DNA from: a virus
Length of the DNA stretch: 64,000 bases
Virus record (IMG/VR): IMGVR_UViG_3300045988_109767
Coordinates: 1 to 64,000 of that record
Reading direction: 5' to 3' (one strand)
The notes beneath the pieces are model-generated. The model saw nothing but the letters and a program-made list of their open reading frames with translations. It searched no databases and had not been told where the DNA came from. Shown in pieces: positions 29,578 through 50,410 of this stretch (position 1 is the first letter of the stretch; the number at the start of each line of letters is the position of its first letter). Made by a program: the position numbers and the translations under genes.

Positions 29578-30387
29578 TTAAATACTTAACTCTTCAATGG
29601 TCAAGCCTTTTTCTTTTGCCCACTTTAGCATCGCGCATAATTCTGTTTCTGACTTATATTTCGGATCACGCCACGCCCATCCGAATTTATCCAGGACATG
29701 ATGATATAATTCGTCGGCCTTTGCCGTGTAAATGTCTTTGAATAAATGCTCCGAACCTTCCGGTATAAGCATCTCTGTTGTTGCAAAATCAGAATACGAC
29801 AAACATCCGTAAGCATATTCTGTTATTTCACTCCATGCTTCTCCGGCTTTAAATCCAAATTCTTTTACAAAAGCCAAAGTTAGATACATATTTAATAATA
29901 TTGCTGGATCATATACTGAATCTGGCTTTCTCTCTATTATTTCCTTTTCAAATTCCTTTAAATCTTCAGGTCCTAAAAAGATATATCCTGCCACCGATTG
30001 ATAATTAGCTTCCGCATACTTCTTGCATTTATTGTTATCAATAATCTTACCAATGTTAGATAATATCTTTTGCCTCCACCCATCACAAAACTCCACCTCT
30101 ATATTCATCCAATCAGTATTATAATTGTATTCTCTCGGATGTCCTACCGATGTAACCCTTATACTATTCACACCATATCCATAAAGGCGTTCTCCTACCT
30201 CATTGGCCCATTCCTGTACAAAAGGAATAAACTTATCGCAATAAGAATTAAAATCAAAATCTAATTCCTCCTCATATTCCGGCATCTCTTCATAATCTTG
30301 TTCAAAGAAATATCGAGGATCTGTTATTGTTTCATAGAAACTTACGTTAATGAAACAAAACTCGTTGGTTGTCGTTTTTAATATCAT
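29578..30387 (-). CDS. hypothetical protein
   Basis: 269-aa ORF. Confidence 0.5.
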   Translation of the reverse strand: MILKTTTNEFCFINVSFYETITDPRYFFEQDYEEMPEYEEELDFDFNSYCDKFIPFVQEWANEVGERLYGYGVNSIRVTSVGHPREYNYNTDWMNIEVEFCDGWRQKILSNIGKIIDNNKCKKYAEANYQSVAGYIFLGPEDLKEFEKEIIERKPDSVYDPAILLNMYLTLAFVKEFGFKAGEAWSEITEYAYGCLSYSDFATTEMLIPEGSEHLFKDIYTAKADELYHHVLDKFGWAWRDPKYKSETELCAMLKWAKEKGLTIEELSI

Positions 30388-30638
30388 AGCTTTTTGTATT
30401 TACGTACATTTTTCTTGCCATAGAATCTACACATGGCACGAATCTGACTATAAAATACTTTTGTCCTCCTGGCCTCAAAGTATTTAAACATTTCTTCATT
30501 CTTTGTTTCCCACACGTAATCCGTTTGAGAACTCATGTGATTTTTGTCCTTGCGTGAATAATGGTAATATGATACCACAACACGTTTCGCACCATTCTTT
30601 ACAGGTACGATATTCACATCTATGTTATTATCTGTCAT
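30384..30638 (-). CDS. hypothetical protein
   Basis: 84-aa ORF. Confidence 0.4.
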   Translation of the reverse strand: MTDNNIDVNIVPVKNGAKRVVVSYYHYSRKDKNHMSSQTDYVWETKNEEMFKYFEARRTKVFYSQIRAMCRFYGKKNVRKYKKL

Positions 30639-30757
30639 ATTATTATCGTTTTATATATTATACAAATACAAAGAGCGCACACCTTCACAGGCCGGCGCTC
30701 TTTTCAATAAAAATGAAAAAACTAACATTACATAAACATATTGTTTTCTGCTCTTTA

Positions 30758-30991
30758 TTACAATACTTTTGTCCCACAATTGTTATATCGTCCGTACTCT
30801 TTTTTCGTATCATTCAAGATTTCAAACACCATCTTCTTATGATCTTTGTTTGGCAACTTGTCTTTAATAGCCGATATTACACCAGCTATAGACGTAAAGC
30901 CTGAATCCGTTATTGAACATAGTAATAATCCCCTGTCATCGCTGGTGCTTATCGCTGAAGCCTTTATAATATCATTCTTATATATTCTCAT
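30758..30991 (-). CDS. hypothetical protein
   Basis: 77-aa ORF. Confidence 0.35.
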   Translation of the reverse strand: MRIYKNDIIKASAISTSDDRGLLLCSITDSGFTSIAGVISAIKDKLPNKDHKKMVFEILNDTKKEYGRYNNCGTKVL

Positions 30992-31011
30992 AACTTTTTT
31001 GTTTTATTGTT

Positions 31012-31122
31012 TGTGAGATGCCCAGAATCGAACCAGGACCGGTACATACATGCCGGCACGCCGCGTCATCCCCCTATATGATACAGAAATAGGCATGCCT
31101 ATCCTCACGAACCGACATGCCA
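31012..31122 (-). other. degenerate tRNA-like element A (T-arm plus 3' acceptor-like GGTTCGATTC...ATCTCACA; not a canonical cloverleaf)
   Basis: Plus strand reads tgtgagatgcccagaatcgaaccaggacc; shares GAATCGAACC and the ATCTCACA tail with element B and the T-arm with the real tRNAs at 39.8 kb; I could not pair the 5' acceptor or build a D arm. Confidence 0.35.
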
Positions 31123-31167
31123 AAACCCAAAACTTAATTTGATGAATAAAATAGATTAACAAAAATA

Positions 31168-31482
31168 CTATTCTAATTCTTTTATAATATCTTTCACAAT
31201 ATTCAGCCTTACCTCCTTCGTTTCTGGACTAAGACAACCAAACCACCCATAAAACGTTCTTGTTTCCTCTGGTTCTGTGGCCATACTTATCTTCTCTTCC
31301 AATTCCGGGAAATATATTCTCACCATTTCGTCTGAACGAAACTCATAGATATTTTTATGTGTTTTGAAATACATAAACACTACATTTCTTAACGCAACAC
31401 ATATGTATTCCCCATCCTCTAACCTATCAATCATCTCATATACCTTTTTCCATATGAATAATCGCTCTTCTTTTGTAAACAT
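31168..31482 (-). CDS. hypothetical protein
   Basis: 104-aa ORF. Confidence 0.45.
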   Translation of the reverse strand: MFTKEERLFIWKKVYEMIDRLEDGEYICVALRNVVFMYFKTHKNIYEFRSDEMVRIYFPELEEKISMATEPEETRTFYGWFGCLSPETKEVRLNIVKDIIKELE

Positions 31483-31490
31483 ATTCTTCT

Positions 31491-31838
31491 TTATTTTTGT
31501 GGTATTATTTGACTGTATGCAGACTTTTCCATGTACACAACACTATGTTCCTGTCCAAGGATTTTCTTTGCTGCCTCTTTCTTTATCGCACAATATCTCC
31601 CTGTACGATACGGATTCTTTTGATCTGATCCATCCTCGACTTCGATAATAAAACAACCTCCGTCATCTATTATCTTTTTGCAATTGTCACATACTCCGCC
31701 CGTGCATATATGATGCGGCGCCTGCCCTTTGATGTTATTTCCTAATAAAGCAATCCCCATCTCTTCGCCACATATCATGCAGACTTCTATAGACGGATTC
31801 AATCCGTGTTCTGGATGTAATGTAATACTGTCTTTCAT
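31491..31838 (-). CDS. hypothetical Cys-rich protein
   Basis: 115-aa ORF; CMICGE...CTGGVCDNCKK. Confidence 0.45.
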   Translation of the reverse strand: MKDSITLHPEHGLNPSIEVCMICGEEMGIALLGNNIKGQAPHHICTGGVCDNCKKIIDDGGCFIIEVEDGSDQKNPYRTGRYCAIKKEAAKKILGQEHSVVYMEKSAYSQIIPQK

Positions 31839-31864
31839 TTTCTTTCCTCCTTTGTTTTTAATAT

Positions 31865-31940
31865 TGTGTGAGATCGCCGGAATCGAACCGACCTACCGCA
31901 CCATGAATCCCATAAAGCAAATGCTCCGATCTTCGCAGAC
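31865..31940 (-). other. degenerate tRNA-like element B (T-arm GTCGG-TTCGATT-CCGGC plus acceptor-like GATCTCA-CA)
   Basis: Plus strand reads tgtgagatcgccggaatcgaaccgacc; partial 5' acceptor pairing (GAAGATC) only; too short for a D arm. Confidence 0.35.
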
Positions 31941-32180
31941 GGGAGCATTCTGTCTAAAGCATAAGAAAATTAATGAAGAAAATCTTCCTCACTTACGCCA
32001 TAGCATCTAAAATAGCTATCAACACTATTTCTATGACAAGCATAATAGAGAATGTCTTAAATATCTTTTTCATATCTCCTCCTTTTTTATCTGTTCTTTT
32101 CACGTTCCACAATAAACTGTTCCGGCTCTGCTCCGACCTACGTTCCACCTACAACCGCAGGCCTTAGCCCAAGGCGCCGC

Positions 32181-32441
32181 CTACTCCCCCTCTATGGCAG
32201 CCTGTTCGTACCTACAAATCCAATCTCCATCTATACAACTATTACTACGCGATAACAAACATTTATCCTTATAACAATCATAAAAAATACACCTCTCACA
32301 ACTGTAATCCCTAATTTCTACACAGCTAACTACCTTAGCATATACTATACCATCACTACCTTCTATTCCTCTTACCCCAAAAATAGAACCTTCTCCCTCC
32401 TTACTCAAATCTAAGTCAGGTGCAAAATCATATACGTTCAT
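32181..32441 (-). CDS. hypothetical Cys-rich small protein
   Basis: 86-aa ORF. Confidence 0.4.
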   Translation of the reverse strand: MNVYDFAPDLDLSKEGEGSIFGVRGIEGSDGIVYAKVVSCVEIRDYSCERCIFYDCYKDKCLLSRSNSCIDGDWICRYEQAAIEGE

Positions 32442-32515
32442 GTTGTTTATGTTTTAATTGTTATACATTCCGATTACTACTAATCTATAGAATATAGTTT
32501 TCAACTCTCAACCTA

Positions 32516-32694
32516 TTGAATTTTGTAGAATAAACTCACATTATGCTGTTTTAAAGCACTGTAAGTCTTAATTTTGTAGGAAAACCCTACATAATGCTGT
32601 TTTAAAACGCTGATCTGTTGAATTTTGTTGGCAGGAACTACATAACGCTGTTTTAAAACGCTGTAAGTCTTAATTTTGTGGGAAGACAGTGCCC
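32516..32694. repeat. tandem direct repeats, about 3.5 units of 50-52 bp (TTGAATTTTGTAG...ATGCTGTTTTAAAGCACTGTAAGTC)
   Basis: Units at 32516-32567, 32568-32617, 32618-32669 and a partial unit 32670-32694, each 80-90% identical to the others; intergenic. Confidence 0.85.
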
Positions 32695-33410
32695 TCCCTC
32701 TCCCCCTCTCCAACCCCGGCTAATCCTCCGACTTTCTGCATAGAAACTGCGCTCTCGGCCTCACTACAGGCATACGGAGAGCGCTACAAGCTTATACTAT
32801 GGCATGGGATATGGGGTGTTTAGAGATAATATCATTCCATAGAGAGAATAGAGAGCCTTCAGCCCACGCCCTACCGTCTGCTCCTCCTATCGAGATAGAT
32901 ATTCAAACCTATAATCAAAGCCAAAAACGAAAAGCAAAAGATCATTACAATATTATACTGATCTGCTCCGTACTCTAACATAGAACGGATACCAACTGAT
33001 AAAAAATATAGGTCAGCGACTAATAAAAACCACCACATAGAATAAAAAAAAATACAATAAGTATGTCCGAAAATACGGGTATTATAAAACCTAACTAATT
33101 GATAATCAAACATACCTCATTTTTAAGAAAAATACAATAAGCCTAATTTTCAATCCATAGAGACGAAAAAGGCGGCATCCTACACCATATTTTGGGTCAG
33201 AAAACCGCCTCCAGTTTCGTTTTAGACCAATTTTAACGACAGGATATAGACAAAATACCGGCGTTATATCCGAATACTCCTATTTTTGTTTCGTTTTAGA
33301 CCAATATAGCTCTCATCCGCCGTTCACTCTCAGAATATCCTACCCGTAAATAGAAAGAGTAGGATACAAAAATAGGACTGCTCCGATATTCGGAACAACC
33401 CTATTCCTGT

Positions 33411-33617
33411 TTAAATACTGTTTATGTTCTCCTTCACGTATGTTCGTGATGTATGGACTTTACGTTTGCATTTGTCCTTTCCTGTATCGGCATGATACGC
33501 TTCTTTGAGATCACGATACAACATAAATTCACGATACGCTCTTTTCCGCTTTTCTTTAGCTTCTTTCCTGGACAGACCGCGGACGTCTACCATATGAGAT
33601 TTAAATTTCCTTTCCAT
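33411..33617 (-). CDS. small basic protein (possible)
   Basis: 68 aa, Lys/Arg rich; lies in the gene-poor region. Confidence 0.3.
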   Translation of the reverse strand: MERKFKSHMVDVRGLSRKEAKEKRKRAYREFMLYRDLKEAYHADTGKDKCKRKVHTSRTYVKENINSI

Positions 33618-33651
33618 TTTCTTTATGCTTTAATTATGATTAACCCCAGCG

Positions 33652-33810
33652 GTTAAGTGCTTCGATATAGAAACCTTCCGCCTCTTTGTACTCACTTTCG
33701 CTCAATGTTTCCACCGTCTCGATATAGTTACGCAATGTTATTTTTACGCAACTGTTTTTAGATTTATTGAACGCTTCAATTAAAGCGTTGATCATTGCTT
33801 TCTTTTCCAT
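33652..33810 (-). CDS. small ORF (52 aa) not in the ORF track
   Basis: ATG (rc of cat 33808-33810): MEKKAMINALIEAFNKSKNSCVKITLRNYIETVETLSESEYKEAEGFYIEALN. Confidence 0.25.
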
Positions 33811-33833
33811 GCTATTATATTATTTATAATTTA

Positions 33834-33897
33834 GAGGTTGCTCCGGAATCGAACCGGACACGCATTCCTATCCTATAGAGATTTTATGCTACAACCA
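33834..33897 (-). other. degenerate tRNA-like element C (perfect T-arm TCCGG-TTCGATT-CCGGA, six-pair acceptor stem, no D arm)
   Basis: Plus strand reads gaggttgctccggaatcgaaccggac...acaacca; acceptor TGGTTGT/GCAACCT pairs over six positions; only 64 nt. Confidence 0.35.
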
Positions 33898-34392
33898 ACA
33901 GCCCGTAATTAGTACGTAGTTCTTGCGTACAGGCCCGTACTATGTTGTTATTATATTTTCCGTCTGCTACACAACTTAGCCACAAATAAAGGCGATTGTG
34001 TCCTTGCGCTTTGATACGGCACGTCCCTACATGGTAGGCTACATGCTTGTACCCTGTAATTTAATCTACAGCCTTGTTCTATTTTTTCGTGTAAGCAAGT
34101 AAGACACGTTTCGATCTGGAGATAAACCTCGTACAACGGCATGTTTTCCAAACTGTAATCACATACCTAACATGAATCACGCCTATTCGGGTGATTCATG
34201 CAGTAATACCAGCCCTTTAATTGCCAACGGCAAGGGCAACGGTATATCTATCTCCAATATGTAAAATAACTCTCTTTTTGTCAGCTTCAGTCTAAAGCAT
34301 ACGCGGGACGTGCACCCACTGACACTGGCGTACAGGCGCGTTAAGGTACGCGACAAACCTTTGGAGAGCTTAACGGCGCTCTCCGTGCCTTG

Positions 34393-34932
34393 TTACTGCT
34401 GGTTGCTTTCATGTGCGAGATATTCACTTACACACTTTGCCACAGTGCGAATAGAATAATATTTGATCTTAACAGCCACATAAGTAGCTTTATACTCGTC
34501 GTTTTCTTTTATCAACCATTTAGTGCTTTTTTTGGTCTCCAATGATTCGGCAGTAGTAAAACCAAATGATTTATATTCGCTACCGTAAACCACATTCTCA
34601 GCGCACCAATCAGCCGTTTTAGCCTCAACGCCTTTCTCTTTGTCTGCATTGGTATCCTTATACACTTTAGAGTATAAAGCAAATTTAACAAATGTATCGT
34701 CAACTTTCGGTAACATTTGGCTACACACAGCTACCAGGCGTTTTTTATCCTTGGCGAGGGCTGCAACCTTTACGGCGTATTCTGCCGGTATTTCTAAGGC
34801 CTTGCAAATAGACTTAAGATCAGCTCCATTAGCAAATAGAGCGTTGTACAGTTTAACAGCACCTACCAAATTTGCAGCATTTTCTTTGATAACGGCATTC
34901 TGTAGTTTGTTTACATTTTTTTTCGTAATCAT
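34393..34932 (-). CDS. hypothetical Lys/Ala-rich protein, isolated inside the repeat-rich region (start taken as MITKKNVNKL)
   Basis: Track ORF 34393..34995; the internal Met at 34932 is preferred because the first 21 codons are hydrophobic junk. Confidence 0.45.
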   Translation of the reverse strand: MITKKNVNKLQNAVIKENAANLVGAVKLYNALFANGADLKSICKALEIPAEYAVKVAALAKDKKRLVAVCSQMLPKVDDTFVKFALYSKVYKDTNADKEKGVEAKTADWCAENVVYGSEYKSFGFTTAESLETKKSTKWLIKENDEYKATYVAVKIKYYSIRTVAKCVSEYLAHESNQQ

Positions 34933-35325
34933 ATCCCAATATATTTTAATTGTTAAACAAATGATATTCAAATTAATGACCCACAACGCAGGCAATTACA
35001 GATACATATATAGCCAGCCCAACGGGTACACTATATAGGTTCACTATGTTAACTCGTAATCTCTCTCGATCACGACGCAAATATACGACATTTATCAATA
35101 TTACATATATATATGCTATATTTTTTTTGTTAACTTGTATTAATTTCGATTCTATTATCTGATTATCAGTAAGTTACAAAAAAAACACAAGAGCAGTATT
35201 ACACGCGTACATTAATATGTAGGATATATTCTTATTTAAGTGGCTTATAATCAATAGGTTATAATAACACATTGATTATCAATAATTTAAATAAGTGATT
35301 GATAATCAGAGAGTTTGTGGGTTTG

Positions 35326-35382
35326 AGGTAAAACGCGTTTCCGGTTTTCCAGCGAAGGGGGTGTGGGGAAGAAAACGCGTTT
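35326..35382. promoter_or_regulatory. pair of palindromic sites AAAACGCGTTTC (43 bp apart) in a GC-rich island with G-runs
   Basis: taaaacgcgtttccgg at 35327 and gaaaacgcgtttcggg at 35370; AAACGCGTTT is its own reverse complement; GGGGGTGTGGGG and GGGGGCGGGAGG nearby. Confidence 0.4.
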
Positions 35383-35419
35383 CGGGGGCGGGAGGTTCGT
35401 GATAGGTACCCCCTCTCTC

Positions 35420-35524
35420 TCATCACATAAATATTTTTTCTCATATCTCTCATCACATAAACCTCTTTCTCATATCTCTCCTATCACATAAACATTTCAC
35501 CATTCCTCTCCCTCATCACATAAA
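35420..35524. repeat. four direct copies of CTCT-n-(T)CATCACATAAA with about 31-bp periodicity
   Basis: tcatcacataaa at 35420, 35450 and 35513, and tatcacataaa at 35482; each copy is preceded by a CTCT tract. Confidence 0.8.
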
Positions 35525-35574
35525 AATATGGGGAACCTATCCAAAGTTCCCCATACTTATTTTACGACCAGTAA

Positions 35575-35967
35575 TTATTTACTTTCCCATATTAGTTTAT
35601 CTTCGGCTATTCCGATCTTTACTTCCTCGCACTTTCTTCCTATCCATCCATTGAGATACGAGAATGGTTCTGAGTTTTTTACTTCTTCTCCTAAGAAATT
35701 AAAAGCTTCAGTAGAAACATGGGATGCTTCATGGCAAACTGTTTCAAAATCAATTATTTTCTTATTAATAAACCATATCAAAAATCCCGTATTAGGATTT
35801 AATTTACACCCTCCGTATGGAACGGATACAGTTACAGCCTTGCTATTATCTACGTAACTAAAATCGTTATTGAAACATTCTACCATGCCAGATACGTCTT
35901 TTCCTACGTATATCCACAGATTAAAAGGATAGACTTCCGGATAGAACTGATATAATTCACGCTTCAT
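35575..35967 (-). CDS. small protein with HExxH zinc-metallopeptidase-like motif
   Basis: VCHEASHVSTEAFNFLGEE: HExxH plus a downstream Glu. Confidence 0.4.
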   Translation of the reverse strand: MKRELYQFYPEVYPFNLWIYVGKDVSGMVECFNNDFSYVDNSKAVTVSVPYGGCKLNPNTGFLIWFINKKIIDFETVCHEASHVSTEAFNFLGEEVKNSEPFSYLNGWIGRKCEEVKIGIAEDKLIWESK

Positions 35968-36932
35968 TTCGATAAAAGTTTTTTACTTTCAAGGAAGTCC
36001 TTAAACTGGTCACTTGATACGTCTATGACGAATCCAGCAGCACCAGTATGTCCTCCACCACCGAATCTTTTACTTACCTCACAGCAATCTACGCTGTCTT
36101 CTACGCATTCATAAAGAGAGAACCGTACTTTACCACCTGGCATGATACAAAATGGCATAAGGGCTTTAATTTTTCTACCGTCTAACCAGTCTCGTGTAAG
36201 AGAATCAAATACCTTAGAACTAAATTCGGTGGTATTCATCGCCACGACCTTCACCTCATCAACGTACGCTTCGAACGAATACGCACTTACCTCTTGTTCG
36301 TTTTTACCAGCCATGTAGTTAATTATAGCACGTCCTTCTTTAGCGAGATCATAAAAAATAAGATCAATTTCATTGTCCTTCATATCTTCTTTAAAGTGAT
36401 CATACAAATACGACAATGCTATTAATACATTGAGTCTTATTTTTGATCTCAAGGCATACTGGATAGCTACTACCGTATCCCAGCCTAAACCGGATTCTTT
36501 ATTCCACACATCGTAGTCTGACAGACACCGGACGATCGCCGGCACCTTCCCCATCAGCAGGTCCGAGGCCAGAGCGCACGCACCGACACCGACTCTCCTC
36601 AACCCTGGAACTACGAACCCCCATGTTTTACTATCTTCGATAATTCCCTTATGGTGATCTATCCACATCAGGCTCTTTCCTTCATCAAGCCATTTCTTGA
36701 AAATCGTTTTAGAATCGGCTCCGAAAGACACGTCAAGAACGTAAACAACCCCACATTCATCTACTTTATCAATAACTTTCTTTACATCATCTTCATACGA
36801 ATACGGGATATAAATAACATCCTTGTTTTTACTGTTTTCGTACATGGTTGCGATGGCTGCCGACACAACGCCATCTAAATCCGATTTATGATAAACTATC
36901 GCCGTTTTATTCACCTTCATAATATTGCACAT
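35964..36932 (-). CDS. DHH-family phosphoesterase (DHH plus DHHA1; NrnA/RecJ-like)
   Basis: Motif I YHKSDLDGVVSAA; DHH motif LMWIDHHKG; C-terminal GGGH motif RFGGGGHTGAAGF. Confidence 0.7.
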   Translation of the reverse strand: MCNIMKVNKTAIVYHKSDLDGVVSAAIATMYENSKNKDVIYIPYSYEDDVKKVIDKVDECGVVYVLDVSFGADSKTIFKKWLDEGKSLMWIDHHKGIIEDSKTWGFVVPGLRRVGVGACALASDLLMGKVPAIVRCLSDYDVWNKESGLGWDTVVAIQYALRSKIRLNVLIALSYLYDHFKEDMKDNEIDLIFYDLAKEGRAIINYMAGKNEQEVSAYSFEAYVDEVKVVAMNTTEFSSKVFDSLTRDWLDGRKIKALMPFCIMPGGKVRFSLYECVEDSVDCCEVSKRFGGGGHTGAAGFVIDVSSDQFKDFLESKKLLSK

Positions 36933-39743: not shown

Positions 39744-39759
39744 TGTCTTACTTTTTTAG

Positions 39760-39831
39760 AGGCTTGTGGCGGAATCGAACCGCCCTACGAGATTTTGCAG
39801 ATCCCTGACTAAACCACTCATCCAACAAGCC
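39760..39831 (-). tRNA. tRNA-Cys (GCA)
   Basis: Manual cloverleaf: acceptor GGCTTGT/ACAAGCC; anticodon stem GGGAT/ATCTC; loop CTGCAAA; T-arm GGCGG-TTCGATT-CCGCC; discriminator U. Confidence 0.7.
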
Positions 39832-39834
39832 ATG

Positions 39835-39906
39835 TAGCCCAACCGGGAGTCGAACCCGGAACTAAAGTTTAGGAAACTTTTGTTATATCCGTTTAACTAC
39901 CAGGCT
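39835..39906 (-). tRNA. tRNA-Arg (CCT)
   Basis: Acceptor AGCCTGG/TTGGGCT with three G-U pairs; D-stem GTTA/TAAC; anticodon stem AAAGT/ACTTT; loop TTCCTAA; T-arm CCGGG-TTCGACT-CCCGG. Confidence 0.6.
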
Positions 39907-39975
39907 ATTTAATGTTTGCTATGTTCACACACCGCAAACATTCAGATAATTAACATTTCCACAAAAACTTAATCG

Positions 39976-40046
39976 TTATCCAAGGAGGATTCGAACCTCC
40001 GCTAACAGAACCAAAATCTGTTGTGCTACCACTACACCATTGGACA
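39976..40046 (-). tRNA. tRNA-Gln (TTG), U1:A72 as in bacterial tRNA-Gln
   Basis: Acceptor TGTCCAA/TTGGATA; D-stem GTGT/GCAC; anticodon stem ACAGA/TCTGT; loop TTTTGGT; T-arm GGAGG-TTCGAAT-CCTCC. Confidence 0.65.
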
Positions 40047-40047
40047 G

Positions 40048-40120
40048 TGGTCCCGGAGGGATTTGAACCCACGATCTTGCGGTTATGAGCCGCCTGCTTT
40101 TACCACTAAGCTACAGGACC
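40048..40120 (-). tRNA. tRNA with CAT anticodon (elongator Met or Ile-lysidine type)
   Basis: Acceptor GGTCCTG/CGGGACC; D-stem GCTT/AAGC; anticodon loop CTCATAA; T-loop TTCAAAT; one mismatch each in the anticodon stem and the T stem. Confidence 0.5.
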
Positions 40121-48508: not shown

Positions 48509-50131
48509 TTACAATGATGAATACTGAGATGAAGGATAAAGATAGGTATCATTATAGAATGATAGCTCTTCTAATGGTATATCCTTGAATACGGATTCAC
48601 CATCTAATTCTTTATCATTATCTACTGTTGTACCAATATTAGGTAATGATTGGATAGATATATCCATATTCTCTATCTTTTCCTTAAACTGTTCTGCCTT
48701 AACATACGTATAGATATCTTCGCTTACCGATCCAACCGCTTTAGCCATCTCGCCGGCGAACTCAGCATACATATCCCGTACCTCATTAAAACCTGCCTTT
48801 TTGTCAGGAGCGGTATTGTTATAGGTTTTCATTCTCCTACTTACCCTACCGCAGACCCCGGCAACGGACGTCCCCACCTCAGCACAGCAGGCTTCCGCAT
48901 CAGCCATGCCTGCCTTTACTGTGGCTACCTTCTCCTTACTCCATCCACTAACCTTGTCGTATGATTGTTTAAGACAGTTTAAGAACATGTCCATTCTTCG
49001 CTTCTTATCTTCTGCTATGATAGCGCGATAATACTTTCTTACAATCTGATTTTGTGTACTTCGCTCATATCCGTCCCAGAAGTCTTTGTGCGCTTCTTTA
49101 GCCATAACAGAAGCCAATGATCTTGCTTCTTCTTCTTTTGTCTTTTTACGATCTATGCCAAGGATCTCCCCATCTTCGGAAACAACTTCTTCTGCGTTTA
49201 GGAAACGTAGGATATGAGTATTGTCTTTTAAGAAGAAATTGAAATCGTCTTTCTTACTCACTTTTTCTTTTTCTCCTTTCTCTATATCCTTCTCTCCAAA
49301 ATACCATCTGTTTGTTGCTCCTTTTTTATACAAGGTCCAGGTATTTGCTATTTGCCAGAAAACTGCCCCGTGCCTATATACCGGAATCAGCTTACCTATT
49401 GGGTAGTTATGTTCGTTTGCTTCAATGTAAGCACGAGGATTATCTACGTATGTTATAAATTGTACGTTTTCGAACCTTTTTACGAGCTTGTCTTGTATCG
49501 CCATACCGACAATCTCTTTCGCTTTTGTTAGTCCTACATTCAAGTACAAGGCAATTGTTTTGTTACTTATCGTCGAATCAATTAATCCATAATACGAGTG
49601 GCTTCCGTCTACGACCTCCGCCTGAGAGTTTGTCTCTCCACTGTTCAGTACAGACTCATTGTTCCTGACTAAATTAACAAACATCGCCTCTCTTATCCTG
49701 TCAAGGACCTTTTCATGGTTTGTTATTTCATTTTTCCTTATCTTAATTAAAATCCTATTCTTTGGAAGACTCACTTTTCCACATCCGAGAGTAAGTTGTA
49801 CGCCATTAACACGATACCTTCTTGCAACGAACGTACTATCCGTCATACGGAACAGTTCGTCAAACATCGGATGTCCTGTCATGTTCTTGAATTTCGAATA
49901 CCCGATCCCAAGCTTATGAAGAAGATCTTTCTGGTTTTTGAATCTTATTCTCGAATCCCGGCGGGAGATTTTTATCATACAGTATAAAGCGTACAGTTCC
50001 ATGAACAGCGAATCTGATGACCACTGTTCCAAAAGTCTGAGACTTATGTTAATATTTCTACCTAATTGTAGCTTCATAATCTGTAACAAAAAAAAATCGG
50101 ATGGATTTTTGGGGATATCCATCCGATTCAT
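48509..50131 (-). CDS. large hypothetical protein, first gene of the leftward block (candidate replication initiator or early regulator); start uncertain (alternative Met at 50077)
   Basis: 540-aa ORF; its 5' end contains an 11-bp perfect inverted repeat. Confidence 0.5.
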   Translation of the reverse strand: MNRMDIPKNPSDFFLLQIMKLQLGRNINISLRLLEQWSSDSLFMELYALYCMIKISRRDSRIRFKNQKDLLHKLGIGYSKFKNMTGHPMFDELFRMTDSTFVARRYRVNGVQLTLGCGKVSLPKNRILIKIRKNEITNHEKVLDRIREAMFVNLVRNNESVLNSGETNSQAEVVDGSHSYYGLIDSTISNKTIALYLNVGLTKAKEIVGMAIQDKLVKRFENVQFITYVDNPRAYIEANEHNYPIGKLIPVYRHGAVFWQIANTWTLYKKGATNRWYFGEKDIEKGEKEKVSKKDDFNFFLKDNTHILRFLNAEEVVSEDGEILGIDRKKTKEEEARSLASVMAKEAHKDFWDGYERSTQNQIVRKYYRAIIAEDKKRRMDMFLNCLKQSYDKVSGWSKEKVATVKAGMADAEACCAEVGTSVAGVCGRVSRRMKTYNNTAPDKKAGFNEVRDMYAEFAGEMAKAVGSVSEDIYTYVKAEQFKEKIENMDISIQSLPNIGTTVDNDKELDGESVFKDIPLEELSFYNDTYLYPSSQYSSL

Positions 50132-50135
50132 GTCT
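50098..50135. promoter_or_regulatory. perfect inverted repeat AATCGGATGGAT / ATCCATCCGATT at the edge of the divergent control region
   Basis: atcggatggat-ttttggggat-atccatccgat; 11-bp arms. Confidence 0.5.
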
Positions 50136-50402
50136 TTTTTTTTCGTCCGGAAAACTCCAAAATCCCGTTACAAATTTGAATCAATCCAAGTAGAAAAACA
50201 ACAAGACACTTAATATTTTATATTCTTGTTGTTTTATTTGAATTGACTTCAAATCTGTAACGTGCTACAAATGTAGAAACAAAATTCAAGAATCAAACAA
50301 CAAGAACTTATTTTTTTTAATGTTACAGTGCAAATATCGGGACAAATTCTGAATCCATTGTCATAAAATACGTTAATTTTAAATTTATAAATCTTTAATC
50401 CT

Positions 50403-50410
50403 TATCTTTG
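50403..50410 (+). promoter_or_regulatory. TAnnTTTG -7 promoter element (TATCTTTG) for the rightward block
   Basis: Exact motif 18 nt upstream of ATG 50429. Confidence 0.4.

Follow-up and report, generated by a model that had tools for sequence, protein, structure and literature searches.

The described systems closest to the locus reported here are the large phage RNAs GOLLD and ROOL, the tRNA-like folds of certain eukaryotic and organellar transcripts, transfer-messenger RNA (tmRNA) and the promoter/stem-loop cassettes (PeSL) of phage T4. We analyzed a stretch of 64,000 nt (positions 1 to 64,000 of the IMG/VR virus record IMGVR_UViG_3300045988_109767, hereafter the window), with emphasis on an island of about 5 kb at 30640-35575, which an earlier note, made from the sequence, had proposed to be an origin of replication, a regulatory hub or a site of one or more structured non-coding RNAs; it named GOLLD and ROOL as large phage RNAs typically located near tRNAs. 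The island contains a predicted structured RNA of about 520 nt, termed S1, and two shorter elements, A and B, all of which lie on the minus strand and terminate in tRNA-like modules composed of an acceptor stem and a T-arm (GGUUCGAUUC).

GOLLD and ROOL resemble S1 in being phage-borne, longer than 500 nt, built of many helices supported by covariation and physically linked to tRNA sequence. They differ in that their covariance models do not match S1, which comes from a crAss-like phage, a group whose known hosts are Bacteroidetes, and in that the tRNA-like unit of S1 lies within the 3′ end of the RNA itself rather than in a neighbouring tRNA gene. In the MALAT1/mascRNA, MEN-beta and mitochondrial tRNA punctuation systems, a tRNA-like fold of about 60 nt likewise ends a long non-coding RNA or stands between cistrons, and the mascRNA-type fold shares with the modules its acceptor stem and T-arm as well as a single reduced arm; S1 has the same layout, in which a longer structured RNA ends 3′ in a tRNA-like fold. 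Those systems, however, are eukaryotic or organellar, whereas cleavage of the modules described here by RNase P or RNase Z is a prediction from sequence. The PeSL cassettes of phage T4 mediate shuffling of small open reading frames (ORFs), and are comparable in that repeated regulatory elements stand beside small accessory ORFs that vary among related phages; in the island, what recurs is a tRNA-like RNA module instead of a promoter plus stem-loop.

To our knowledge, epsilon crAss-like phages have no cultured member, and most of their genes have no assigned function. The window derives from such a phage (Epsilonunovirus) and is about 90% identical to, and colinear with, crAssE-Sib (GenBank OR575929, entered there as 'csAssE-Sib') across the interval and its flanks. 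crAssE-Sib is an uncultured epsilon crAss-like phage of 151 kb, for which the genus Epsilonunovirus was proposed (PMC11054128), and in viromes of the human gut some 13-18% of crAss-like reads come from epsilon crAss-like phages (PMC7886860). All genes from position 1 to about 50131 of the window are carried on the minus strand. For comparison, 80 IMG/VR loci were retrieved with the adjacent NrnA-like gene as a query, and 36 distinct full-length versions of 30200-36100 formed the alignment set, in which genes were told from non-genes by nucleotide diversity per codon position. Every compared genome came from one genus (at least 87-90% identity). Cellulophaga phage phi17:2, which has been placed in the epsilon group (PMC7886860), was rejected as a comparison genome as too divergent.

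The structured RNA S1 and the tRNA-like modules

S1 occupies 33835-34358 (minus strand), between the stop codon of a 179-aa gene and a 56-aa gene. Its consensus structure, computed with RNAalifold from 52 distinct sequences (alignment A1), comprises 144 pairs in 26 helices at -130 kcal/mol, with 99.4% of cells paired. Changes on both sides were found in 21 pairs, compared with 12.1±1.7 in column shuffles (none of 500 reached 21), and 157 doubly changed cells were observed against 45.6 expected. Slid controls gave 0-7 doubly compensated pairs, and four coding segments taken from the same genomes through the same pipeline gave 1-11, with weaker energies and z between -0.8 and 4.1, compared with 14.2 for S1. 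One helix (alignment columns 52-57/94-99) reads UUGUCA/UGACAA or UUGGUA/UACCAA, with further compensated variants, and another is GCCC/GGGC in some genomes and UAUC/GAUA in others. The fold contains many conserved G·U pairs and the antisense strand folds less well (-85 versus -131 kcal/mol), so the structure appears specific to the transcribed strand. On this evidence, S1 is a conserved, strand-specific, multi-helix RNA of about 520 nt, as predicted from the aligned genomes.

The earlier suggestion of structured non-coding RNA is thus supported by the covariation, including its comparison with shuffled, slid and coding controls. S1 is neither GOLLD nor ROOL, since neither model matches even at E≤10 on isolated S1; nor did any other Rfam family give a match, be it at gathering score or, with the region or S1 by itself as the query, at E≤10. 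Of the perfect hairpins quoted before, the first is real (CATGAATCAC/GTGATTCATG at 34171-34200), with a loop of 10 nt and not 13; it is part of S1, as are one of the tRNA-like fragments and the GC-rich patch, and its upper stem contains four doubly compensated pairs. A motif from the junction of S1 with its module occurs once per contig in at least 119 IMG/VR contigs. The GenBank record of crAssE-Sib (OR575929.1, 556-843, minus strand; about 33890-34180 in the window) annotates a 'hypothetical protein' over S1, a practical point for annotation; ORFs over S1 in this region have codon-position ratios of 0.88 and 0.98 and no coding signature. A covariation-supported RNA of 520 nt outside Rfam is a concrete target for work on structure and function, as ROOL and GOLLD once were.

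The three tRNA-like fragments noticed earlier are present on the minus strand, with the T-loop motif GGTTCGATTC(C/T) at 31024-31034, 31879-31889 and 33845-33855. With one mismatch allowed, GGTTCGAWTCC occurs nine times in the window, compared with 1.7 expected (none of 100 shuffles reached nine); four of the six copies outside the island belong to real tRNAs recognized by ARAGORN at 39759-40120, a cluster 6 kb from the island. In all three modules, a T-arm with a GGTTCGAWTCC-type loop is followed by a 7-nt acceptor 3′ strand, as in a canonical tRNA, and the T-loop is almost invariant. Folds and alignments revealed no D-arm, and the extra arms have 5-nt or irregular loops, with neither a conserved U33 nor a 7-nt anticodon loop. 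The modules are called neither by ARAGORN nor by the Rfam tRNA model, there is no tRNA match at E≤10 in 30300-36000, and ARAGORN with lowered thresholds and introns returned noisy and inconsistent calls.

Module C (33835-33902, minus strand), the 3′ end of S1, has the acceptor stem GGUUGU/GCAACC and the T-arm UCCGG-UUCGAUU-CCGGA, and between them a single extra arm that contains an internal loop. Compensation is seen in its inner arm (CG/UA/UG and UG/CG/UA) and in the T-stem, where CG changes to UA. An alternative closure of S1 by its two ends, AGGUU/AACCU with G3-C70, is also conceivable from pairing; two sequences favour the local stem, with U·U to U-A and U·G to U-A changes in the local acceptor stem of module C that break the competing long-range closure.

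Element B (31864-31992, minus strand) is formed by a covarying hairpin at about 31916-31955, in which three pairs changed on both sides (alignment A4, 22 sequences), followed by a tRNA-like minihelix at 31864-31915 with an acceptor stem UGGGAUU/GAUCUCA containing a G3·U70 pair and a T-arm GUCGG-UUCGAUU-CCGGC, whose stem alternates between U·G and C-G and between C-G and U·G. Its diversity is 0.033-0.046, below that of third codon positions (0.11-0.16). Element A, also designated S3 (31008-31160, minus strand), has a hairpin at 31091-31120 and then a module at 31008-31075 with the acceptor stem GGGAUG/CAUCUC (G3·U70), an extra arm GCCGG..CCGG and a T-arm CCUGG-UUCGAUU-CUGGG; its diversity is 0.03-0.05. 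In the divergent genome L075, element A shows a G-C to A-U change in the acceptor stem and a U·G to U-A change in the T-stem. The evidence for element A is weaker than for the others. Modules A and B have the acceptor core GGGAU/AUCUC with the G3·U70 wobble in common, a pair that is not invariant. All three modules thus keep an acceptor stem and a canonical T-arm through substitutions that preserve pairing, and their predicted folds are unfit for decoding tRNAs.

Comparison with tmRNA is instructive. Like tmRNA, the modules combine a T-arm and acceptor without an anticodon arm, S1 is an RNA of several hundred nucleotides in a gap of a crAss-like genome, and A and B have the G3·U70 pair. In contrast, the island has no match to RF00023, RF04321 or the ARAGORN tmRNA model and no tag reading frame, with no codon periodicity in S1, S2 or S3, and S1 has G3-C70; the acceptor of tmRNA is formed by the two ends of the RNA, whereas the acceptor stems of the modules are most likely local. 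As a positive control, the same search recovered a tmRNA in the cultured crAss-like phage phi14:2 (NC_021806, 4031-4500, plus strand; RF00023 at 46 bits versus a gathering score of 47, E 3.6e-16; ARAGORN tag peptide GSSVQKLAMVA). This tmRNA lies in an abundant 'intergenic' long non-coding RNA region, and the long intergenic regions of phi14:2, which have no assigned function, are reported to be among its most abundant transcripts. A second gap of phi14:2 carries, at 1829 (plus strand), an uncalled T-arm/acceptor fragment, GAAGGTTCGAATCCTTCACCAGTGG. The findings on S1 connect with these unexplained transcripts, which serve as a precedent, and crAss-like phages may more widely carry tRNA-related RNAs in the gaps of their early region.

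Gene cassettes beside the modules and a proposed role for the island

The DNA directly 3′ of all three modules is polymorphic for one entire small ORF. After module B, a 134-aa ORF (+395 nt) is inserted at 31856 in 22 of the 36 genomes; after module A, a 141-aa ORF (+410 nt) is inserted at about 31000 in 11; and the 56-aa gene, which starts 23 nt past module C, is deleted (-193 nt) in six. In all five arrangements observed, the first ATG lies 20-29 nt past the discriminator position of the module, with an A-rich leader between them. Each module, as predicted, thus precedes by 20-29 nt a small ORF that some genomes have and others lack. Searches of Pfam, PHROGs and PADLOC gave nothing usable for the two ORFs inserted in crAssE-Sib.

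We propose, at about even confidence, that the interval is an accessory and regulatory region of the Epsilonunovirus genome, in which the modules serve as processing signals and cassette marks. The island would be transcribed leftwards, as the neighbouring genes are, and would combine, as a mosaic, nine small genes specific to the genus with three non-coding RNAs ending in modules, two tandem arrays and one operator-rich promoter region. Host tRNA-maturation enzymes would recognize the modules, RNase P on the 5′ side and RNase Z, or exonucleases with the CCA-adding enzyme, on the 3′ side; such cleavage would free a stable RNA from a polycistronic transcript and leave the downstream mRNA with a short A-rich leader, much as in mitochondrial tRNA punctuation and in the formation of the MALAT1/mascRNA 3′ end. 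The shared T-arm/acceptor sequence of about 30 nt, together with the conserved leader, could act as a recombination landmark for the gain and loss of small cassettes, and upstream of the 179-aa gene the palindromes and phased repeats could be protein-binding sites that control the unit. These roles in processing, punctuation and cassette exchange are inferred from an anatomy that they fit. The strict pairing of a module with a swappable ORF suggests a simple rule for the expression and exchange of accessory genes in these phages.

Several points weigh against this account. Sampling was confined to one genus, and many of the compensatory 'cells' may therefore represent a few inherited events. 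Transcription, RNA ends and cleavage are all deduced for this phage. The local acceptor stem of module C competes with the long-range closing helix, and just two sequences discriminate between them, while element A shows one-sided changes only (alignment A3), the divergent genome L075 excepted. Furthermore, in distant epsilon genomes, whose NrnA-like protein is 37-40% identical, ORFs are densely packed behind the NrnA-like gene, and neither an island nor T-arm motifs or tRNAs were found within 20 kb of it. The arrangement is therefore young or lineage-specific, with the island restricted to this genus, and these distant loci were unusable for extending the RNA alignment.

A bolder form of the same idea is advanced tentatively, as something clearly short of an even bet: S1, A and B may constitute a new phage RNA system in one of the most abundant groups of human-gut phages, in which tRNA-like 3′ modules hijack host enzymes to punctuate transcripts, stabilise RNAs and mark sites of exchange, with S1 as a new class on the scale of ROOL. 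Taken as a whole, the earlier interpretation survives in part: structured RNAs are supported, with S1 being neither GOLLD nor ROOL, and, as set out below, a regulatory hub is plausible and an origin of replication has no positive support beyond repeat architecture.

Tandem arrays and alternative explanations

Both repeat arrays described earlier were recovered: a 51-bp tandem array at 32519-32679 (3.2 copies, TRF score 179), and the 31-bp periodic repeat as a 29-31-bp array at 35414-35524 (3.6 copies, TRF score 107). They are the best tandem repeats of the 64-kb window, all others scoring at most 63. Read on the minus strand, the conserved core of the 51-bp unit is TTTAAAACAGCA..TGTAG..CAAAATT; assemblies contain 1-8 matches to it, spaced by exactly 51 bp in nearly all of them, and units of the 30-bp array are gained and lost among genomes, so that, as assembled, both arrays vary in unit number. 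Contig ends in IMG/VR concentrate at two sites inside the arrays (about 17 at 35412-35422 and about 14 at 32532-32696), and in Logan assemblies the 2.75-2.8-kb core between the arrays is often a separate contig. The two arrays account for the fixed break points in assemblies of these genomes; such breaks are expected at tandem repeats, where short-read assembly alone would suffice to produce them.

The most serious competitor, which we consider possible though doubtful, is that the island, or the 2.8-kb core between the arrays, is a replication origin and/or a packaging region (pac, cos or terminal repeat), with the arrays as iterons or terminase-binding sites and the RNA structures secondary. 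The island resembles iteron origins such as lambda ori and plasmid oriV in that phased direct repeats, three to four in number, stand beside an AT-rich segment and a small uncharacterised gene; as in an iteron-type origin, at least three phased direct repeats with an adjacent AT-rich segment are present here, the repeats being in helical phase (about 30 bp and 51 bp) beside a stretch with a GC content of 0.31-0.34. In addition, the genome start of crAssE-Sib predicted by PhageTerm (PMC11054128) maps to 33328/33329, inside the island, epsilon phages have no DNA polymerase of their own and must recruit the host replisome (PMC7886860), and contigs of many assemblies end in the arrays, with the core often assembled alone.

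However, array breaks of this kind are expected from short-read assembly alone, and the island departs from iteron origins in that neither an initiator nor a skew switch was recognised, the number of units in the arrays varies and one unit is 51 bp. No initiator gene, DnaA-box cluster or terminase gene was recognised next to it, reading of the repeats revealed no DnaA-box consensus, and the 179-aa protein, for which neither a family nor a fold could be detected, cannot be typed. Both the minimum of the cumulative GC skew and the switch in gene strand are found at about 50.2 kb, outside the island. An origin would also leave the strand-specific covariation of S1 unexplained, and it is compatible with, rather than exclusive of, the accessory and regulatory region proposed above. 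The origin put forward in the earlier note has no positive support beyond repeat architecture, and an origin or packaging role for the arrays is at most a possibility. The gene-strand switch and the cumulative GC-skew minimum coincide at about 50131-50408, where a Bacteroidetes-type promoter match is also found (50268-50297, minus strand); by composition alone, this site appears a better origin candidate than the island.

The remaining alternatives concern the modules. One, which we regard as unlikely, is that they are tRNA mimics, which host defence enzymes that target tRNAs would take as decoys or substrates, or which would be substrates for aminoacylation. The G3·U70 pair is the alanine identity element, and it is present in the local acceptor stems of A and B; adjacent genes encode a polynucleotide kinase/3′-phosphatase and an NrnA-like nuclease, and the tRNA cluster is nearby. 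Yet G-C replaces G3·U70 in L075, the discriminator base is C and not A, there are no anticodon loops to serve as bait for anticodon nucleases, and a search of the neighbouring ORFs found no defence or anti-defence annotation.

It has also been considered, and is already disfavoured as quite improbable, that a former tRNA array has decayed, leaving the tRNA-like pieces as remnants in unconstrained spacer DNA. Their failure in ARAGORN and with the Rfam tRNA model, and the real four-tRNA cluster 6 kb away, would agree with decay. Module diversity (0.045-0.066), however, matches the level of real tRNA genes (0.016-0.17) and of codon positions 1 and 2 (0.039-0.045) and is roughly half the synonymous-site level (third positions, 0.11-0.16), the stems change by compensatory or wobble substitutions, and the T-loop hardly varies.

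Phage attachment (attP) sites often contain tRNA 3′ ends, and the modules could in principle be attachment sites copied from a host tRNA gene; repressor and antirepressor genes have been reported in Epsilonunoviruses (PMC11054128). This explanation is very unlikely and already largely refuted: a pattern scan of 185,579 representative bacterial and archaeal genomes found the 22-nt T-arm and acceptor strings of B and C in no tRNA gene, its matches being one phage contig that had been mis-binned and, otherwise, coincidental hits within coding DNA, on which ground host-tRNA attachment fragments were rejected; moreover, there are three different modules with covarying local stems and no integrase nearby. 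A 3943-bp contig of a 'Veillonella sp.' metagenome-assembled genome (NZ_DXLG01000138.1), 92% identical to 31435-35447 of the window, is a fragment of this phage mis-binned into a bacterial genome.

Gene content and regulatory features of the island

The gene poverty described earlier is confirmed: 26% of the interval is covered by ORFs of 100 aa or more on the minus strand, the minimum among 5-kb windows of the leftward gene block, in which the median is 82%. The statement that it holds short, weak ORFs only does not stand, since codon-position diversity across the 36 genomes identified nine conserved minus-strand genes of 26-179 aa, which occupy about 2325 of 4936 nt (47%). The earlier observation was therefore largely right, yet it underestimated the coding content. 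None of the nine could be assigned by Pfam, PHROG, PADLOC or PDB. That the non-coding DNA encodes proteins through a reassigned stop codon, as is common in other crAss-like groups (PMC7886860), has a negligible probability and is already refuted at the level tested, because three-base substitution periodicity is absent from every non-coding segment, reading TAG, TGA or TAA as sense yields no ORFs that fill these segments, and the window contains no suppressor tRNA.

All nine genes lie on the minus strand. Codon-position diversity supports the 77-aa gene (30758-30991), the 104-aa gene (31168-31482) and the 115-aa gene (31491-31838). The 26-aa hydrophobic peptide gene (31993-32073) has a GGAGG ribosome-binding site and is conserved in 35 of 36 genomes with conservative replacements, and the 86-aa gene (32181-32441) has a coding signal of 2.0 and is intact in 30. 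A 245-nt insertion after 32089, in the gap between these two genes (32074-32180), is found in four related genomes. The 55-aa gene (32871-33038), intact in 35 genomes, encodes a two-helix membrane-type protein; the frame upstream of it varies among genomes, and the 80-aa ORF of the window arises solely because the length of a T6-T10 run joins this upstream part to the 55-aa gene. At 33039-33113, the run length differs among genomes and so fuses or separates the 55-aa gene and a conserved 22-codon upstream frame (MLDYQLVRFYN...); the run could be slippage-prone or merely polymorphic. The 68-aa gene (33411-33617) is intact in all 36 genomes, with a ratio of third- to first/second-position diversity of 10.5, and is followed 3′ by a terminator-like hairpin with a U-tract read from the sequence at 33367-33405 (minus strand). 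The 56-aa gene (33640-33810; coding signal 2.6) is the presence/absence cassette after module C.

The largest, the 179-aa gene (34393-34932), is an intact ORF in 35 of 36 genomes, with diversities of 0.092, 0.036 and 0.325 at codon positions 1, 2 and 3 (ratio 5.1). The 120 best of 334 homologues of its product are all at least 87% identical, that is, from the same genus, and the gene appears confined to it. The protein has no significant Pfam, PHROG or PDB match, its only PADLOC match, PDC-M04B, is weak (E 0.004, 15 bits), and the AlphaFold model (pLDDT 37) is unusable. Its third-position diversity is about three times that of its neighbours (0.32 versus 0.11) with positions 1 and 2 conserved, a pattern that points to alleles of old age or to recombination with lineages that have diverged.

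ORFs over the tRNA-like pieces, the 51-bp array and 33951-34356 have no coding signature by codon-position diversity. The diversity of non-coding pieces (0.03-0.09) is below that of pooled third positions, which indicates that most of the non-coding DNA of the island is under constraint. No convincing RNA covariation was found in 33039-33410, 32680-32870, 35100-35413, 32074-32185 or 30639-30757.

The suggestion of a regulatory hub is plausible for 34933-35574, where four phased repeats and a set of palindromes lie between a terminator and a leader that covaries; no binding protein was recognised. Transcription would first pass a terminator hairpin and its U-tract (35530-35556, minus strand) and, just downstream, the four phased repeats (35412-35527), with the core CTCATCACATAAA and a spacing of 30-32 bp. 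The operator-like palindromes reported earlier are also present: AAACGCGTTT occurs twice, at 35331 and 35373, in a G/C-rich patch (35330-35386), and three to four copies of TGAT(T/A)ATCA lie within an AT-rich stretch at 35158-35310. Diversity across 35100-35413 is 0.066. A scan for Bacteroidetes-type -7 boxes gave the candidate TATATTTG at 35078-35085 (minus strand), 3′ of which the 179-aa gene has a structured 5′ leader (34953-35085 including the box, minus strand), with two-sided changes in six pairs (z=8.6) and a hairpin, 35068-35075/35054-35061, that alternates between CGUGAUC..GAUCACG and UGUGUUA..UAACACA. Scans for sigma-70 promoters and terminators gave counts not above shuffles, with a model ill-suited to Bacteroidetes hosts. 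By its appearance, the segment 34933-35574 is a promoter under tight control that would serve S1 and the 179-aa gene.

The second hairpin quoted earlier, TATCCTAC-n15-GTAGGATA, is real and lies at 33336-33366, after correction of a small coordinate error. It belongs to a non-coding stretch at 33039-33366, which contains a single doubly compensated pair, a perfect 18-bp direct repeat, GTTTCGTTTTAGACCAAT, at 33214-33231 and 33288-33305, and the position equivalent to the crAssE-Sib genome start. At the left end, a GC-rich hairpin AGAGCGC..GCGCTCT (30672-30701), flanked by T-runs on both strands, looks like a terminator that would close the island. At the right end, about half of the related genomes have unrelated or shorter sequence in place of a 130-aa gene adjoining the island (35575-35967), and the alignment shows large deletions in this segment in over 20 of the 36 genomes. 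A single fusion protein of 536-558 aa, which joins the NrnA-like phosphodiesterase to the neighbouring polynucleotide kinase/phosphatase domain (PF08645 with PF02272; P0125, P0128 and P0138), is called in some related genomes.

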